A stretch of DNA of 16,966 bases from a virus. Taxonomy: Duplodnaviria; Heunggongvirae; Uroviricota; Caudoviricetes. This document shows, one piece after another, positions 774 to 16,966 of the stretch (the first letter of the stretch is position 1; each line of letters begins with the position of its first letter). The stretch is taken from IMG/VR virus record IMGVR_UViG_2703718855_000004, one strand, 5' to 3'. A model generated the notes under the pieces. It had not been told where the DNA came from and did no database searches. It saw only the letters and a program-made list of their open reading frames with translations. Made by a program: the position numbers and the translations under genes.

Positions 774-1526
774 TCAGATTCCCTGGTGAGTAAGAATTTT
801 ACTTTCTGAACTGCTCTGAGAGTATTGACTTGGAGAAACACCAAAATAACGTCTAAATACATAAGTAAAGTATGAGACACTGGCATAACCACAGACCTTA
901 GCTACTTTACTAATAGGATAACAACGAGTGCTGAGTAAATATTCAGCCATTTGCATCCTCTCATCAAGTATGATCTTACTGAATGATACCCCCTCTTCTT
1001 TCAATTTCCTCTTTAGTAAACTTTCGCTGAGATATAATCTTGATGATATATCCTTAAGACGCCATGGTGCAGATAAATCCGTATGAATAATCGTTTTAAC
1101 TTTAGCCCCTGTGCTTTTCAAACATTCAAACAGAAATACTCCAAATTGTTTTTCAGAAGAAAATGCAGAGAGACATGTAAAAGCAATAGACTCATCAAAA
1201 ATTTCTATGTATTCAGCACAGTGATTAGCCCAACTAATTAATCCTTTAATTAAACTGAAGTCAGCAAAGTTTATTTTTAAATAAGATGGATATTCCCTAC
1301 AATCAGAAATATCCCTTAAGTTATTAGCTTTCAAATAGCGACTAATAAACTCAGCGCCAAAATCCGCCACTATCACTCTTTCAGGATATGTCAGGAAAAA
1401 ATCTCTAGAGCTAGAGTCGACAAGTACAGATGAACCTCTCTCCAGAAACACACTCTCTTTTCCGAAATAAACATCAAAGGACTCCAAAATCAATATAACT
1501 GAACATGTAGTTGCCATATCATCCAC
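774..1526 (-). CDS. AraC/XylS-family transcriptional regulator, YdeO/AppY/GadX-like
   Basis: 250-aa ORF. The C-terminus ...PWRLKDISSRLYLSESLLKRKLKEEGVSFSKIILDERMQMAEYLLSTRCYPISKVAKVCGYASVSYFTYVFRRYFGVSPSQY is the two-HTH AraC DNA-binding domain and aligns by eye with E. coli YdeO/AppY. The stop lies 2 nt from the IS2-like right end. Confidence 0.8.
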   Translation of the reverse strand: MDDMATTCSVILILESFDVYFGKESVFLERGSSVLVDSSSRDFFLTYPERVIVADFGAEFISRYLKANNLRDISDCREYPSYLKINFADFSLIKGLISWANHCAEYIEIFDESIAFTCLSAFSSEKQFGVFLFECLKSTGAKVKTIIHTDLSAPWRLKDISSRLYLSESLLKRKLKEEGVSFSKIILDERMQMAEYLLSTRCYPISKVAKVCGYASVSYFTYVFRRYFGVSPSQYSQSSSESKILTHQGI

Positions 1527-2101: not shown

Positions 2102-2163
2102 TGGCGGAGAGAGGGGGATTTGAACCCCCGGTAGAGTTGCCCCTACTCCGGTTTTCGAGACCG
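2102..2163 (-). tRNA. Partial tRNA-Ser(CGA): 3' 62 nt only (anticodon stem to CCA), an att-type remnant rather than a functional gene
   Basis: The minus strand reads CGGTCTCGAAAACCGGAGTAGGGGCAACTCTACCGGGGGTTCAAATCCCCCTCTCTCCGCCA. This matches the anticodon loop (CGA), long variable arm, T-arm and acceptor 3' end of E. coli serU-type tRNA-Ser. The 5' acceptor and D-arm sequence is absent (the adjacent sequence is unrelated). Confidence 0.8.
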
Positions 2164-2906
2164 ATGATACAGAGTCGAAAAATCAAAGAGTTAAAAATTT
2201 TTCTTGGAATAAATGTCTTTAAATCGTACACGAAAAATCAATGAATTACATAACATTAAAGAAGAATATTCCAAGCCTTCTTGAGGCTACCACCTGTTTT
2301 CAGGTGTCATTCAGACGTGATTTGCCCCAGATTGGGAAAGCACGCTTTTTTCTCAGCTATCGTCCTCTTATTTTGCCGTTACATTTCTTTTTGCACTCTA
2401 ATGATTAATTTACAATAATAATATCGGTAATTATTGAGTAATAATAAATTGATTATTGCAAATGTAATTTAATTCCATCTTAGCGTTATATTCCAATCTT
2501 TAATCTCCGCATGGAACAAGTTGCATGCGTGACTATATTAAGACAACTTATAACCACCAAAACATTTGCTTTGCAAGCAAAAACAGTGACCATTGACTCT
2601 AAGAAAATTCCGATCTATTGTTAGGGTCATCAAAGTTACTTAACAGTATTCCGAAATGAAAATACAAAGCAAGCTAATTGTCTTATTAAACATTATTATT
2701 GCATTTATATTATTTGAGCTTTTAGCTCAAAAATTTGGTTTGAGTACATTATTTTAAAGCAAGGTAAACAATATCGGGCACTCTAGTTTTTATAATTAAC
2801 AATTAAACGTCCATAAAATGTTATTTACTTTTCTTCGCTATTGTCACATCTTAATATAGTGGCTTACGCCACTCTACTTTCATCACATTTTGTACGTTTA
2901 TGTACT

Positions 2907-2938
2907 CGCCATGAAGCTCTTTCATGGCGATTTTTATT
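2907..2938 (+). terminator. Rho-independent terminator-like hairpin with no gene upstream
   Basis: CGCCATGAA-gctct-TTCATGGCG, a perfect 9-bp stem, followed by ATTTTTATT on the plus strand. It sits in AT-rich DNA with no ORF of 60 aa or more. Confidence 0.45.
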
Positions 2939-3021
2939 CTTAATCCAAGAACATACTCCCTATCTATAGCAAAATCACTTTTTGAACAAAAGAATAACGT
3001 ATTTAGGTAATCATTACGAAT

Positions 3022-3603
3022 TTACCCTATAGGTGCTACTGGCCATTCAATATCCTGTGCAGTTGACGTATCAACACGGTTCAGCAATACCCGATACTTT
3101 TTCCAGGCTTCCAGCAACAAGGTTTCTTCCTCCGTTGCGATTTCCAGATCCACAGCATCCTGAAGCGGCGCTATATGCTCACTGGCTACCTGCATCAGGC
3201 TGTTTTTTGTTTCTTCCACCTCCCGGATCCGGAACAGTTTTTCTGCTTCCGTATCCTTCACCCAGGCTGTGCCGTTCCACTTCTGAAACTCCCCTTCCGG
3301 GGATAACCAGGTAACATTTTCCGGTAATGAGCCGAGTTCAGAAATAAATAACGCGTCCCCTGATGCCACGTCATAAACTGTTTTACCCCGATGGTCTTCA
3401 ACAAGATGCCACGATGACTCATCACTGTTGAAAACAGCCACGAAGCCAGCCGGAATATCTGGCGGTGCAATATCGGTACTGTTTGCTGGCAGACCTGTAT
3501 GAGGCGGAATATATGCATCACCTTCACCAATAAATTCATTAGTTCCGGCCAGCAGATTATAAATTTTTATGGTCCGTGGTTGTTCACTCATTCTGAATGC
3601 CAT
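3022..3603 (-). CDS. tfa: Tail fiber assembly protein Tfa (lambda-type)
   Basis: 193-aa [47 protein letters not shown]... is collinear over its full length with lambda Tfa as I recall it. Confidence 0.9.
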
Positions 3604-3848
3604 TAACCAACACGGGCAGACTTCACCACATTCACCTCGCGGATGTAGTCGCTGCCCATCGCATTCATGATGGCCCGCTGAAAGGGCAGTGTTTCCCAGC
3701 GCCCTTCCTGGTATGCGGATTCTTTCGGGAGATAGTAATTAGCATCCGCCCATTCAACGGCGGTCTGTGGCTCCGGCCTGAACAGTGAGCGAAGCCCGGC
3801 GCGGACAAAATGCCGCAGCCTGTTAACCTGACTGTTCGATATATTCAC
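3603..3848 (-). pseudogene. Terminase large subunit (gpA) N-terminal fragment, about 81 codons, stop overlapping the tfa start
   Basis: [81 protein letters not shown] matches the first ~81 residues of lambda gpA, then stops. The stop and the tfa ATG overlap (TAATG). The rest of A and all head and tail genes are missing. Confidence 0.85.
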
Positions 3849-4368
3849 TCAGCAACCCCGGTATCAGTTCATCCAGCGCGGCTGCTTTGTTCATGGCTTT
3901 GATGATATCCCGTTTCAGGAAATCAACATGTCGGTTTTCCAGTTCCGGAAAACGCCGCTGCACCGACAGGGGGATCCCGTCGAGAATACTGGCAATTTCA
4001 CCTGCGATCCGCGACAACACGAAAGTACAGAATGCGGTTTCCACCACTTCAGCGGAGTCTCTGGCATTCTTCAGTTCCTGTGCGTCGGCCTGCGCACGCG
4101 TAAGTCGATGGCGTTCGTACTCAATAGTCCCTGGCTGGAGATCTGCCTCGCTGGCCTGCCGCAGTTCTTCAACCTCCCGGCGCAGCTTTTCGTTCTCAAT
4201 TTCAGCATCCCTTTCGGCATACCATTTTATGACGGCGGCAGAGTCATAAAGCACCTCATTACCCTTGCCACCGCCTCGCAGAACGGGCATTCCCTGTTCC
4301 TGCCAGTTCTGAATGGTACGGATACTCGCACCGAAAATGTCAGCCAGCTGCTTTTTGTTGACTTCCAT
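3823..4368 (-). CDS. nohD: Terminase small subunit Nu1 (lambda-type)
   Basis: 181-aa ORF MEVNKKQLADIFGASIRTIQNWQEQGMPVLRGGGKGNEVLYDSAAVIKWYAERD... is full-length and collinear with lambda Nu1. Its 3' end overlaps the gpA fragment start as in lambda. The symbol is chosen by analogy with K-12 cryptic-prophage naming. Confidence 0.85.
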   Translation of the reverse strand: MEVNKKQLADIFGASIRTIQNWQEQGMPVLRGGGKGNEVLYDSAAVIKWYAERDAEIENEKLRREVEELRQASEADLQPGTIEYERHRLTRAQADAQELKNARDSAEVVETAFCTFVLSRIAGEIASILDGIPLSVQRRFPELENRHVDFLKRDIIKAMNKAAALDELIPGLLSEYIEQSG

Positions 4369-7965: not shown

Positions 7966-8390
7966 AAGCTGTGTGACGAAGTAACCACTCTTAACAGCAT
8001 AACCAATTTTTTACGTACGTAAACCACTAAATGATATTTGCGAGAATGCTACCGAGTATTGAAAACACCACTACAAATACATAAGCAAATCTCAACAAAT
8101 AACCAACAAATAATTTCCAGCGTTATTTTAGCTGGTTTAAATTGAATCTTCAAATTATAGAGCACTTATAAATAACAGCCATTAATATAAATTGGCTAAT
8201 AGATTTATTTTTATTCAGCCAAGAGCCATGAATAGGATTCGATAGAAAAAGTTCAGATAAAAATAGAGATCTACTTCACAAATCAAATGAGAAACCAAAA
8301 CTTACATCTTGAAATAATCACATTGATTAGATGAATATTTATCGCGCAGTGACATCATTTTTTAATAATAGTTCAAAAAAAGGGCTCACG

Positions 8391-9473
8391 ATGAAAAAAT
8401 TAACAGTGGCAATTTCTGCTGTAGCTGCATCAGTACTGATGGCGATGTCTGCTCAGGCAGCTGAAATTTATAATAAAGACAGTAACAAGCTGGATCTGTA
8501 CGGGAAAGTTAATGCTAAGCACTACTTCTCCTCTAATGATGCAGATGATGGTGATACTACTTATGCCCGTCTTGGCTTCAAAGGTGAAACCCAAATCAAC
8601 GATCAACTGACTGGTTTCGGTCAGTGGGAATATGAATTCAAAGGCAACCGCGCTGAATCTCAAGGTTCCTCCAAAGATAAAACCCGTCTTGCCTTCGCTG
8701 GCCTGAAATTCGGTGACTACGGCTCCATCGATTATGGCCGTAACTACGGTGTAGCATACGATATTGGTGCATGGACCGACGTTCTGCCAGAATTCGGTGG
8801 CGATACCTGGACCCAAACAGATGTATTCATGACTGGTCGCACCACAGGTGTTGCAACTTATCGTAACAATGACTTCTTTGGTCTGGTTGATGGTCTGAAC
8901 TTTGCTGCTCAGTATCAGGGTAAAAATGACCGCACTGACGTAACTGAAGCTAATGGTGATGGTTTCGGTTTCTCCACTACTTATGAGTATGAAGGATTCG
9001 GTGTAGGTGCAACCTATGCTAAATCTGACCGCACTAATAATCAGGTTATCTACGGTAACAACAGCCTGAATGCATCTGGTCAAAATGCTGAAGTATGGGC
9101 AGCTGGTCTGAAATATGATGCGAACAACATCTATCTGGCTACCACCTATTCTGAAACCCAGAACATGACTGTTTTTGGTAATAACCATATTGCCAACAAA
9201 GCACAAAACTTCGAAGTAGTTGCACAATATCAGTTCGACTTCGGTCTGCGTCCGTCCGTTGCTTACCTGCAATCTAAAGGAAAAGACTTGGGTGCGTGGG
9301 GTGATCAGGACCTGGTTGAATATATTGATGTAGGTGCAACCTATTACTTCAACAAAAATATGTCCACTTTTGTTGATTACAAAATCAACCTGATTGATAA
9401 GAGCGATTTCACGAAAGCATCTGGCGTTGCTACCGATGATATCGTTGCTGTAGGTATGGTTTACCAGTTCTAA
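8391..9473 (+). CDS. nmpC: General porin of the OmpC/OmpF/PhoE family, prophage-encoded (NmpC/Lc-type), apparently intact
   Basis: 360-aa product [23 protein letters not shown]|[23 protein letters not shown]... has a signal peptide, the porin N-terminal motif, and a C-terminal ...GMVYQF with terminal Phe typical of OM beta-barrels. The start was chosen at 8391, not the ORF-track 8331. Confidence 0.9.
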
Positions 9474-13789: not shown

Positions 13790-14466
13790 CACCGGACATT
13801 ATCCTGCAGCGTACCGGGATCGACGTGAGAGCTGTCGAACAGGGGGATGATGCATGGCACAAATTACGGCTCGGCGTCATCACCGCTTCAGAAGTTCACA
13901 ACGTGATAGCCAAGCCCCGCTCAGGAAAGAAGTGGCCTGACATGAAAATGTCCTACTTCCACACCCTGCTGGCTGAGGTTTGCACCGGTGTGGCTCCGGA
14001 AGTTAATGCTAAGGCGCTGGCATGGGGAAAACAGTACGAGAACGACGCCAGAACCCTGTTTGAATTCACTTCCGGCGTGAATGTTACTGAATCCCCGATC
14101 ATCTATCGCGACGAAAGTATGCGCACCGCCTGCTCTCCCGATGGTTTATGCAGTGACGGCAATGGCCTTGAGCTGAAATGCCCGTTTACCTCCCGGGATT
14201 TCATGAAGTTCCGGCTCGGTGGTTTCGAGGCCATAAAGTCGGCTTACATGGCCCAGGTGCAGTACAGCATGTGGGTGACACGAAAAGATGCCTGGTACTT
14301 TGCCAACTATGACCCGCGTATGAAGCGTGAAGGACTGCATTATGTCGTGGTTGAGCGGGATGAAAAGTACATGGCGAGTTTTGACGAGATGGTGCCGGTG
14401 TTCATCGAAAAAATGGACGAGGCACTGGCTGAAATTGGTTTTGTATTTGGGGAGCAATGGCGATGA
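13786..14466 (+). CDS. exo: Lambda exonuclease (Red-alpha), full length
   Basis: 226-aa [68 protein letters not shown]...GEQWR is collinear with lambda Exo over its full length, with only a few substitutions from the recalled sequence. The start overlaps the bet stop (ATGA). Confidence 0.95.
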
Positions 14467-15548
14467 CGCATCCTCACGATAATATCCGGGTAGGCGCAAT
14501 CACTTTCGTCTACTCCGTTAACCTTTATATAAGAAACAATGGATATTACTGCTACAGGGACCCAAGGACGGGTAAAGAGTTTGGATTAGGCCGAGACAGG
14601 CGAATCGCAATCACTGAAGCTATACAGGCCAACATTGAGTTATTTTCAGGACACAAACACAAGCCTCTGACAGCGAGAATCAACAGTGATAATTCCGTTA
14701 CGTTACATTCATGGCTTGATCGCTACGAAAAAATCCTGGCCAGCAGAGGAATCAAGCAGAAGACACTCATAAATTACATGAGCAAAATTAAAGCAATAAG
14801 GAGGGGTCTGCCTGATGCTCCACTTGAAGACATCACCACAAAAGAAATTGCGGCAATGCTCAATGGATACATAGACGAGGGAAAGGCGGCATCAGCCAAG
14901 TTAATCAGATCAACACTGAGCGATGCATTCCGAGAGGCTATGGCTGAAGGCCATATAACAACAAACCCGGTCGCAGCCACTCGCGCTGCAAAATCAGAGG
15001 TAAGGAGATCAAGACTTACGGCTGACGAATACCTGAAAATTTATCAAGCAGCAGAATCATCACCATGTTGGCTTAGACTTGCAATGGAACTGGCTGTTGT
15101 TACCGGGCAGCGAGTTGGTGATTTATGCGAAATGAAGTGGTCTGATATCGTAGATGGATATCTTTATGTCGAGCAAAGCAAAACAGGCGTAAAAATTGCC
15201 ATCCCAACAACATTGCATGTTGATGCTCTCGGGATATCAATGAAGGAAACACTTGATAAATGCAAAAAGATTCTTGGCGGAGAAACCATAATTGCATCTA
15301 CTCGTCGTGAACCGCTTTCATCCGGCACAGTATCAAGGTATTTTATGCGCGCACGAAAAGCATCAGGTCTCTCCTTCGAAGGGGATCCGCCAACCTTTCA
15401 CGAGTTGCGCAGTTTGTCTGCAAGACTCTATGAGAAGCAGATAAGCGATAAATTTGCTCAACATCTTCTCGGGCATAAGTCGGACACCATGGCATCACAG
15501 TATCGTGATGACAGAGGCAGGGAGTGGGACAAAATTGAAATCAAATAA
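14457..15548 (+). CDS. int: Lambda-type integrase (tyrosine recombinase) with replaced N-terminus: 22 codons matching the start of lambda orf60a are fused in frame to Int from about residue 16
   Basis: 363-aa [25 protein letters not shown]|[27 protein letters not shown]... After the junction (nt ~14520) it is near-identical to lambda Int and retains the catalytic residues (R in VTGQRVGD, K in SKTGVK, H-x-x-R in [10 protein letters not shown] and Y in [11 protein letters not shown]). The start overlaps the exo stop. Confidence 0.88.
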
Positions 15549-15682: not shown

Positions 15683-16966
15683 GTGAACACATTTTCAGTT
15701 TCCCGTCTGGCGCTGGCATTGGCTTTTGGCGTGACGCTGACCGCCTGTAGCTCAACCCCGCCCGATCAACGTCCTTCTGATCAAACCGCGCCTGGTACCT
15801 CTTCTCGCCCGATTCTGTCGGCAAAAGAAGCGCAGAATTTCGATGCTCAACACTATTTTGCATCCCTGACACCAGGTGCTGCAGCGTGGAATCCTTCCCC
15901 GATTACCCTGCCTGCGCAACCTGACTTTGTTGTCGGCCCGGCGGGCACTCAAGGTGTAACGCATACCACGATTCAGGCGGCGGTAGATGCGGCAATTATC
16001 AAGCGTACCAACAAGCGCCAGTATATTGCCGTGATGCCTGGTGAGTATCAGGGAACGGTATATGTCCCTGCCGCTCCGGGTGGAATTACTCTGTACGGTA
16101 CAGGTGAAAAACCGATTGATGTGAAGATTGGGCTTTCCCTTGATGGTGGCATGAGCCCTGCCGACTGGCGTCACGACGTCAACCCGCGCGGCAAATATAT
16201 GCCAGGTAAACCAGCGTGGTATATGTACGATAGCTGCCAGAGCAAACGCAGCGACAGTATCGGTGTTCTCTGCTCTGCGGTCTTCTGGTCACAAAACAAT
16301 GGCCTGCAACTGCAAAATCTGACCATCGAAAACACGCTGGGCGATAGCGTAGATGCAGGTAACCATCCGGCGGTGGCACTGCGTACTGATGGTGACCAGG
16401 TACAGATTAACAACGTTAACATTCTCGGTCGTCAGAACACCTTCTTTGTCACCAACAGCGGTGTGCAGAACCGTCTGGAAACAAATCGTCAGCCGCGTAC
16501 GCTGGTGACCAACAGCTACATTGAAGGGGATGTGGATATCGTTTCTGGTCGCGGCGCAGTGGTGTTCGATAACACCGAATTCCGCGTGGTGAACTCACGT
16601 ACTCAGCAAGAAGCGTATGTGTTTGCACCGGCTACGCTGTCCAACATTTACTACGGTTTCCTCGCCGTAAACAGCCGTTTCAATGCTTTCGGTGATGGTG
16701 TGGCGCAACTGGGCCGCTCGCTGGATGTTGATGCCAATACCAACGGTCAGGTGGTGATCCGTGATAGCGCCATCAACGAAGGTTTTAACACGGCTAAACC
16801 GTGGGCCGATGCGGTGATCTCTAATCGTCCGTTTGCGGGTAATACCGGCAGCGTAGATGATAACGACGAAATACAGCGCAATCTGAATGACACTAACTAC
16901 AACCGCATGTGGGAATACAATAACCGCGGCGTGGGTAGTAAAGTGGTTGCAGAGGCGAAGAAGTAA
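15683..16966 (+). CDS. ybhC: YbhC, outer-membrane lipoprotein of the pectinesterase-like family (acyl-CoA thioesterase); host gene flanking the lambda attachment site
   Basis: 427-aa ORF from a GTG start. MNTFSVSRLALALAFGVTLTACSSTPPDQ... has lipobox LTAC and right-handed beta-helix-type repeats. It lies immediately outside the attL B arm. Confidence 0.88.
   Translation: MNTFSVSRLALALAFGVTLTACSSTPPDQRPSDQTAPGTSSRPILSAKEAQNFDAQHYFASLTPGAAAWNPSPITLPAQPDFVVGPAGTQGVTHTTIQAAVDAAIIKRTNKRQYIAVMPGEYQGTVYVPAAPGGITLYGTGEKPIDVKIGLSLDGGMSPADWRHDVNPRGKYMPGKPAWYMYDSCQSKRSDSIGVLCSAVFWSQNNGLQLQNLTIENTLGDSVDAGNHPAVALRTDGDQVQINNVNILGRQNTFFVTNSGVQNRLETNRQPRTLVTNSYIEGDVDIVSGRGAVVFDNTEFRVVNSRTQQEAYVFAPATLSNIYYGFLAVNSRFNAFGDGVAQLGRSLDVDANTNGQVVIRDSAINEGFNTAKPWADAVISNRPFAGNTGSVDDNDEIQRNLNDTNYNRMWEYNNRGVGSKVVAEAKK

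Follow-up and report, generated by a model that had tools for sequence, protein, structure and literature searches.

A putative YncL-like small-protein gene beside tfa in lambdoid prophages of Escherichia coli

Introduction

Does the AT-rich DNA that separates tfa, the tail fibre assembly gene, from the attachment end in a cryptic lambdoid prophage carry a gene, or is it filler? The tract in question occupies positions 2230-3020 of IMG/VR virus record IMGVR_UViG_2703718855_000004, a stretch of 16,966 nt (termed here the window, to which all coordinates refer). The window is Escherichia coli DNA with a ∼15.5 kb cryptic lambdoid prophage at att-lambda. An initial annotation, made from the letters of the sequence, described the tract as a region of very low GC with no open reading frame (ORF) of 60 or more amino acids, an orphan terminator and a perfect palindrome. 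It proposed a small RNA (sRNA), a peptide of fewer than 60 amino acids, or a silenced region bound by nucleoid proteins that replaces the lambda b-region. Its observations are confirmed in part, and its interpretation is partly supported.

The analysis favours, as a fairly probable explanation, a tract that is not gene-free. The right two-thirds (2445-3021) would be a small autonomous transcription unit of the moron type that accompanies tfa and encodes a YncL-like peptide, and the left third (2164-2444) would be a defunct remnant of a serU-type attachment junction, namely its phage-side arm, acquired by this phage lineage. What is new is most likely an unannotated YncL-like small-protein gene, recognized from its sequence, that travels with tfa in E. 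coli lambdoid prophages. The unit, termed the cassette, and its convergent neighbour consist of the following segments.

2445-2592, no strand: upstream part of the cassette, non-coding, possibly regulatory
2593-2621, plus strand: sigma-70-like promoter, TTGACT-17 nt-TATTGT, from a consensus scan
2656-2757, plus strand: 33-codon ORF, MKIQSKLIVLLNIIIAFILFELLAQKFGLSTLF, unannotated, predicted to encode a YncL-like single-pass small membrane peptide
2713-2731, no strand: palindrome TTTGAGCT-ttt-AGCTCAAA with 8 bp arms, within codons 20-26 of the ORF, incidental
2758-2852, plus strand: variable first part of the 3′ untranslated region (3′UTR), with 30% divergence and indels relative to the 21F61-type copy
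2853-2905, plus strand: conserved 3′UTR block, with a stem-loop AGUGGC-UUAC-GCCACU (2858-2873), an A/U-rich single-stranded linker and a short stem (2892-2905)
2906-2938, plus strand: intrinsic terminator, with a 10 bp stem, a 5 nt loop and a U-tract, facing the 3′ end of tfa
2939-3021, no strand: spacer between the terminator and the tfa stop codon
3022-3603, minus strand: tfa, tail fibre assembly gene, convergent with the cassette, from the RefSeq annotation of identical DNA

Comparison of the tract with random sequences

The null set for each feature of the tract consisted of 3000 random sequences, generated by a first-order Markov model with matching composition. The low GC content is as first described, 2230-3020 having 31.4% and the whole window 44.5%. 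The lack of ORFs of at least 60 amino acids on either strand between 2232 and 3021 is also real, the longest stop-free stretch being 58 codons, yet it is ordinary for DNA of 31% GC and unremarkable, because 851 of the 3000 random sequences (28%) likewise lack a stop-free stretch of at least 60 codons. Palindromes with 8 bp arms occur in 352 random sequences (12%). A terminator-like site, defined as a perfect stem of at least 9 bp with at least four G-C pairs and a T-tail, was found in only one. Among the features originally pointed out, the hairpin with its T-tract, which is present at 2906-2938 on the plus strand, alone exceeds chance.

The palindrome does exist at 2713-2731. Its interest has not survived, however, as it is incidental coding sequence, has a 12% chance expectation and is disrupted in two diverged lineages: the 21F61-type and HB37-type copies both carry substitutions in it. 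A role as operator or terminator was rejected because the palindrome lies inside the ORF, is not conserved and is expected by chance at this rate.

A 33-codon open reading frame

The proposal of a peptide of fewer than 60 amino acids is supported by the ORF at 2656-2757 on the plus strand, which displays both a synonymous bias and similarity to the YncL family. When compared with the 21F61-type copy, which is 78% identical overall, the ORF shows 17 substitutions, distributed 7/1/9 over the three codon positions. Seven of the resulting codon changes are synonymous and five are non-synonymous, the latter conservative; random placement of the substitutions does as well in 0.02% of cases (p ∼ 2e-4). 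The HB37-type copy shows five synonymous codon changes and one non-synonymous change (p ∼ 0.018 by random placement). The ORF comprises 33 codons in all 92 copies detected in genomes, IMG/VR and metagenomes, which fall into five protein variants, and a 5 nt indel is found immediately after the stop codon in the 21F61-type copy. Judged by these patterns of change, the ORF evolves as protein-coding sequence, and it would be translated without a Shine-Dalgarno motif. The predicted peptide is small and hydrophobic with a basic N-terminus, and its best 19-residue hydropathy mean is 2.54, against 2.15 for YncL.

Other short ORFs in the cassette were considered and rejected. Both the 37-amino-acid ORF at 2511-2624, which is annotated in phage PhiR70_1, and a 35-amino-acid minus-strand ORF in the upstream part are frame-shifted by 1-2 nt indels in the Qin-type and 21F61-type copies. 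ORFs of 42 amino acids (2841-2969) and 28 amino acids (2924-3010) are shifted by a T5/T6 length polymorphism. A 24-amino-acid ORF on the minus strand (2851-2925) is without sign of purifying selection, since each diverged lineage carries amino acid replacements at three to four positions.

Relationship to YncL

YncL is a 31-residue stress-response protein; its inner-membrane localization and its induction by stress are known (PMC12542507, citing Hemm et al. 2008, 2010). It is induced by heat and in minimal medium, and its production partly depolarises the membrane, much as YohP does, condenses the nucleoid and lowers viability (PMC12542507). YncL is also a substrate of RseP in vivo, like the Hok proteins (PMC10470546).

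The 33-residue peptide resembles YncL specifically. In a scan of NCBIfam, the YncL model (NF000537) was the sole match (E = 1.3e-5). BLASTP against YncL of E. coli K-12 (b4598) gives 39% identity over residues 1-28 in an ungapped alignment, and the alignment score of 60 is reached by none of 20,000 composition-preserving shuffles. Fifteen other small membrane proteins and type I toxins, whose sequences were entered by hand, score 13-34 against the peptide, and 14 of the 15 are at chance; CydX, the remaining one, reaches a score found in 1 of 2000 shuffles, which is still only 34 against 60 for YncL. A hidden Markov model (HMM) was also built from 15 distinct native YncL orthologues of Escherichia, Citrobacter and Intestinirhabdus and run against 5641 ORFs. 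The prophage ORF and its variants were the sole significant matches (21.6 bits, E = 4.5e-5), the next ORF scoring 5.7 bits and the best shuffle 15.3 bits. For the exact protein a precomputed match to Pfam PF28073 (YncL) is on record, marked as weak; the local copy of Pfam and the PHROGs gave no match to the peptide.

Both proteins have a single hydrophobic helix at residues ∼7-25, and both are encoded by a stand-alone monocistronic small ORF (sORF). From Met1 to Gly28 they share S5, K/R6, V/I9, L10, I/L11, N12, A16, L19, F20, L22, K/R26, F27 and G28, so that all of the listed YncL positions (S5, K/R6, L10, N12, A16, L19-F20, L22 and K/R26-F27-G28) are present in the peptide. There are differences as well. 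The yncL gene has a Shine-Dalgarno sequence, GGTGG, whereas the prophage ORF has none; it lies between patD and ortT, whereas the prophage ORF lies in the b-region beside tfa; and the long, conserved 3′UTR of the prophage gene sets it apart from yncL. No similarity between the two is found at the DNA level. YncL is chromosomal in Escherichia, Citrobacter and Intestinirhabdus, and the prophage ORF is confined to E. coli lambdoid prophages. As C-terminus and genomic context differ, the peptide is to be regarded as a paralogue or distant relative of YncL and not as an equivalog.

A search with phmmer over 1.8 billion proteins returned only the peptide itself and a frame-shifted variant, and tblastn on genomes found no relatives of the peptide. 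Degenerate DNA patterns, run over viral, genome and metagenome collections, recovered the same three to four lineages together with native yncL, and no more distant prophage relatives. A 32-codon ORF at 3443-3541 of an IMG/VR contig of 33% GC (L098), MKKAITLILMNIISALFLFFLIIQNFGFWGHE, fits the motif; it was rejected, its score of 12.6 bits with the YncL HMM being at the level of shuffles. Nothing relevant was found in the literature on the peptide or hairpin sequence, or on an sRNA downstream of tfa.

Promoter-like site, terminator and predicted 3′ untranslated region

The hairpin arms at 2906-2915 and 2921-2930 form ten perfect pairs, five of them G-C, and are followed on the plus strand only by the tail TTTTTATT. 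With a ΔG of −14.4 kcal/mol and the U-tract UUUUUAUU, the site is by sequence an intrinsic terminator, and one that random DNA of this composition hardly ever produces. All of the common variants have the same stem, and they differ in the loop, by G or A. The terminator serves the plus strand, because no T-tract follows the hairpin on the minus strand. The initial annotation had placed no gene upstream of it. That statement proved incorrect: the conserved 33-codon ORF, on the same strand, ends 148 nt upstream, and the terminator most likely belongs to the sORF gene and is not an orphan.

On the upstream side, the promoter-like site at 2593-2621 lies 35 nt before the ATG. Its −35 hexamer is invariant, and its −10 hexamer keeps TAT..T, in all four sequence lineages. 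Transcription would start near 2628, giving a ∼27 nt leader that has no Shine-Dalgarno motif, and the transcript would be ∼310 nt long (∼2628 to ∼2938), leaving 83 nt between its end and the tfa stop codon. Homology with the Qin-type and sit-type copies begins at 2445. The part between that point and the promoter (2445-2592) diverges by 12-21%, like neutral flanks, and folds unremarkably on both strands (z = −1.4 and +0.2).

Conservation is uneven along the unit. Relative to the 21F61-type copy, divergence is 7% in 2853-2938, 17% in the ORF, 21% upstream, 30% in the first part of the 3′UTR and 34% after the terminator, in the spacer 2939-3021. The main product might thus be an sRNA consisting of the last ∼85-135 nt (2803/2853-2938), either derived from the 3′UTR or separately promoted, of the Hfq type, or part of a dual-function transcript, a reading with which the peptide is compatible. 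The 86 nt from 2853 to 2938 are indeed the best-conserved segment and fold well (z = −6.7) into a stem-loop, the A/U-rich linker, the short stem and the terminator with its U-tail; substitutions in them are either in loops or yield G-U pairs, which hold for plus-strand RNA alone, and a perfect TATAAT is present at 2791-2796. To this extent the sRNA first proposed keeps some plausibility. However, compensatory changes are found in none of 21 pairs (covariation term 0.04), the 3′ block folds equally well on the minus strand, and no paralogous copies are found elsewhere in E. coli. Recombinant variants exist around the terminator, and therefore recent exchange could mimic conservation. Nor does the 3′ block belong to an Rfam family: the only Rfam match above threshold in the scan is IS009, which lies inside tfa, and the best sub-threshold one is MicC, with 22.5 bits against a gathering score of 90. 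An sRNA as the main product is judged unlikely, even though it fares better than the other alternatives.

The MicC alignment (2817-2943, plus strand) is full-length and non-significant (E 0.2-1.1), and, like the weak sub-threshold alignments to Aar and rseX, it is driven by the terminator; all three were rejected. It takes in UAUUGUCACA, which resembles the 5′ end of MicC, and most other copies have UGUCAUA there.

A parallel is offered by KilS, the sRNA from the 3′UTR of kilR in the Rac prophage (PMC8175672). The two are alike in a conserved, structured 3′ end, a terminator with a U-tail and a small prophage gene upstream. Unlike KilS, the 3′ end of the cassette is without covariation, and processing, Hfq binding and targets are hypothetical for it. 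An extended version of the proposal is that the cassette specifies a dual-function RNA that travels with tfa, encoding a YncL-like depolarising peptide for superinfection exclusion or dormancy and acting also as an Hfq-binding sRNA on host mRNAs. This is held to be distinctly improbable; if true, about 15% of E. coli genomes would contain a lysogenic-conversion unit that is widespread and has escaped notice until now.

Distribution of the cassette and its link to tfa

The cassette (2440-3021 of the window) was found in 830 of the 5426 complete E. coli genomes searched, and none of its copies bears an annotation for this gene. The standard pipeline, PGAP, calls no gene in it, so that the sORF represents an annotation gap of this size. 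The cassette is also intact in three cultured phages, ev099, mEp332 and PhiR70_1. Chromosomal copies are located at att-lambda and serU, next to ydfJ in the Qin locus, and next to sitABCD.

The cassette is linked to tfa. Enough flanking sequence is available for 86 copies, and in 85 of them the sORF stop codon is followed at ∼265-280 nt by the end of a convergent tfa. The linkage is not obligatory from the side of tfa: K-12 tfaD is 93.5% identical within the gene, yet is without the cassette downstream, and the serU prophage of strain 3CM also does not have it. In Qin-type and sitABCD-linked copies, the far side of the cassette is formed by a 3′ fragment of another tfa in the same orientation (L013 2892-2991; L015, L007), which suggests that tfa plus cassette spreads by recombination within tfa genes. 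Position 2952 was considered as a natural right boundary of the cassette and rejected, being the result of an IS1-mediated truncation.

Several copies are decaying (L016, which is strain KY174, L103 and P0018). One has a ∼80 bp deletion that removes the first stem-loop of the 3′UTR, one has lost its start by a change from ATG to ATA, and one is frame-shifted after codon 26.

Such copies bear on another explanation, that the tract is a decaying, H-NS-silenced b-region filler without a function of its own, in which the ORF, the hairpins and the conservation hitch-hike with tfa. A GC content of ∼31% is typical of horizontally acquired DNA bound by H-NS, and the tract has this composition. Further points in favour of filler are the extensive deletion of the prophage, the left part of the tract, which is certainly a dead attachment arm, the damage seen in some copies (deletions, loss of the start codon or a frameshift) and the fact that PGAP never calls a gene. 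Filler of this kind would not, however, account for synonymous bias and exact frame conservation in one ORF only, for the specific similarity to YncL, for a terminator found once in 3000 random sequences, or for a cassette that is intact in viable phages. Silencing by nucleoid proteins is compatible with the composition and explains none of the conserved features; H-NS binding would also leave room for a gene, as silenced genes are in many cases functional. That the tract is mere filler is very unlikely.

The tract does take the place of the b-region, as had been suggested. It corresponds to that region by position, with the last late gene, tfa, on one side and the attachment end on the other, and ev099, mEp332 and PhiR70_1 have the same DNA in this slot. 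In the arm, the order is tfa, tract, serU fragment, AraC-family gene, insertion sequence (IS) scraps and int, and in the three viable phages the arm from tfa to int is present at 98.5-99% identity.

A probable moron-type unit and its possible role

Morons of lambdoid phages include lom and bor of lambda, gp15 of HK97 and cor of phi80/N15. They are reportedly treated in Juhala et al. 2000 and Cumby et al. 2012. Like these, the cassette represents a small extra gene with a clear terminator and a promoter-like site, the latter a consensus match; its GC content of 30% departs from the 49-55% of tfa and nohD; it is situated at the tail-fibre end of the late region, and it is present in some relatives and absent from others. 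It also resembles morons in a predicted envelope protein, with expression in the lysogen and an exclusion or conversion role being putative here. Unlike lom, bor, gp15 and cor, the gene is far smaller, and it is unrelated to them in sequence.

The proposed unit would thus comprise a sigma-70-like promoter, a short leader, the 33-codon ORF, a 148 nt 3′UTR with a structured end, and the terminator. The ORF product is predicted to be a single-pass inner-membrane peptide homologous to YncL. The terminator would end the sORF transcript and keep RNA from running antisense into tfa. By analogy with YncL, the probable target of the peptide is the inner membrane of the lysogen, into which it would insert and whose energetics it would modulate. 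It could serve as a stress or dormancy factor or, given the link to the tail-fibre module, as an exclusion factor against incoming phage; both roles are suggested by analogy.

Several points weigh against a gene of this kind. Promoter, transcript ends, translation and function have all been read from the DNA. The promoter is a consensus match, and such sites occur at chance frequency in this DNA; no Shine-Dalgarno sequence precedes the ATG. The coding test involves ∼20 changed codons, because there are few lineages: only three to four, all in E. coli prophages. Uneven conservation could also arise from phage mosaicism, with no selection involved. A few copies are start-less or frame-shifted (one lost ATG among the 92, and one variant with a shifted frame). 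With regard to the family, the NCBIfam YncL score is 25 bits, below the curated cutoff of 35, and the C-terminus reads GLSTLF, against GWF[IVMSA] in 25 YncL orthologues.

Many type I toxin mRNAs have no Shine-Dalgarno motif and a long structured 3′ region, and no RNA antitoxin is known for YncL. The least probable alternative is that the cassette is a type I toxin-antitoxin module, its peptide a membrane toxin checked by an antisense or divergent sRNA and serving to stabilise the prophage segment or to cause abortive infection: a small hydrophobic peptide with a basic N-terminus, an sORF mRNA of the form just described, a relative that depolarises the membrane and lowers viability when produced (PMC12542507) and a weak promoter-like site on the minus strand (2847-2818) would all suit it, but no antisense promoter is conserved, the −35 of that site differing between lineages, the conserved upstream region is without special fold on either strand, consensus scanning, which is weak evidence of absence, found no minus-strand terminator, and the scores to TisB, ShoB, IbsC, LdrD, DinQ and ZorO, from sequences entered by hand, are at chance. 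The peptide is like TisB, HokB and YohP in being small and hydrophobic. It differs in that an antitoxin RNA was not found for it, and its sequence resembles theirs in hydrophobicity only.

Current work on YncL and YohP treats them as small membrane proteins that bring E. coli into a stress-tolerant state of low energy. The presence of a putative diverged YncL copy in lambdoid phages, with a promoter-like site and a terminator, suggests that phages might exploit the same mechanism. As a single gene of 33 codons that cultured phages carry, mEp332 among them, the putative gene makes a simple test case. The stakes are moderate: a YncL-like relative would occupy a known accessory slot of phages, and no new mechanism is involved.

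A relic serU attachment junction to the left

The left third of the tract, which the favoured explanation takes as a dead arm, adjoins a relic junction composed of two parts.

2102-2163, minus strand: 62 nt 3′ fragment of the tRNA-Ser(CGA) gene serU, relic core of a serU-type attR
2164-2444, no strand: phage-side arm beside the relic serU junction, without coding signal, mosaic

Positions 1824-2163 correspond to the serU locus, with a match of ∼97% in virtually all E. coli genomes. Of this segment, 1824-2101 comprises 278 bp of native chromosomal DNA from downstream of serU, and the overlap with the annotated 90 nt tRNA-Ser gene is 62 nt; ARAGORN found no complete tRNA. In the record of phage SerU-LTIIb, the same 62 nt piece is annotated as a tRNA-Ser pseudogene at the prophage end. 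The same junction is found in situ at serU, with a lambdoid prophage to its right, in GPEC464, 3CM, KY174 and SerU-LTIIb, and the whole tract serves in GPEC464 as the actual junction of a lambdoid prophage integrated at serU. The arrangement is that of an attR at serU, with the 3′ part of the tRNA gene flanked by native downstream chromosome on one side and by phage DNA on the other. This junction is not in use here, because the prophage sits at att-lambda between ybhB and ybhC. Segment 1824-2163 looks like the fossil attR of a serU prophage, moved to another phage by aberrant excision or by recombination between prophages. The chromosomal DNA with its serU piece is also carried by the viable phages ev099, mEp332 and PhiR70_1.

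Homology in the arm breaks at about 2279, 2358 and 2444. Positions 2165-2279 match the end of SerU-LTIIb, and 3CM is shared only up to 2358. Because the homology with serU prophages stops at different points, 2164-2444 is considered mosaic phage-arm DNA. A 55-amino-acid ORF at 2241-2408, annotated in ev099, was rejected as a gene; it is cut by the breakpoints at 2279 and 2358 and has no family match.

Prophage context and other features

The left prophage end lies just past ybhB, on the bio side, and the right end contains int (14457-15548), followed by ybhC (15683-16966). Identical or near-identical DNA is found in E. coli chromosomes between bio-side ybhB and ybhC. To the right of the tract, the gene order is tfa, a terminase N-terminal fragment, nohD, ylcI, ybcW, ybcV and bor; further right are lysis genes, an ompC-like porin gene (8331-9473) and quuD. 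At 3603-4368, tfa is fused directly to the N-terminal fragment of the terminase large subunit and nohD, and from this fusion it follows that the whole head and tail region has been deleted. The architecture is the same as that of nohD-aaaD-tfaD in DLP12 of K-12. Colinearity of the window with strain RM10410 was ruled out by BLAST to the right of tfa, where the window is without 2 kb; RM10410 retains this 2 kb, which holds tail-fibre and terminase pseudogenes.

On the far side of the serU junction, an AT-rich gene for an AraC-family regulator is located in the b-region (774-1526, minus strand). It best matches YdeO (149 bits) and GadX, all scores being under the equivalog cutoffs. In DLP12 of K-12 the corresponding slot, downstream of the tfa remnants, holds appY, and in strain 2009C-4687 the AraC-family gene and the serU fragment adjoin a different element that contains pinE. 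Scraps of IS630-family and IS2/IS3-family transposase genes (1769-1823 and 1-730) surround the AraC-family gene, and the same scraps are found in the viable phages.

The Rfam family IS009 (RF02111) matches 3062-3260 on the minus strand with 218 bits. The match lies wholly within the coding sequence of tfa, on the sense strand, and is likewise inside the gene in K-12 tfaD (L003 5857-6055); the family probably models a coding segment and not an RNA gene.

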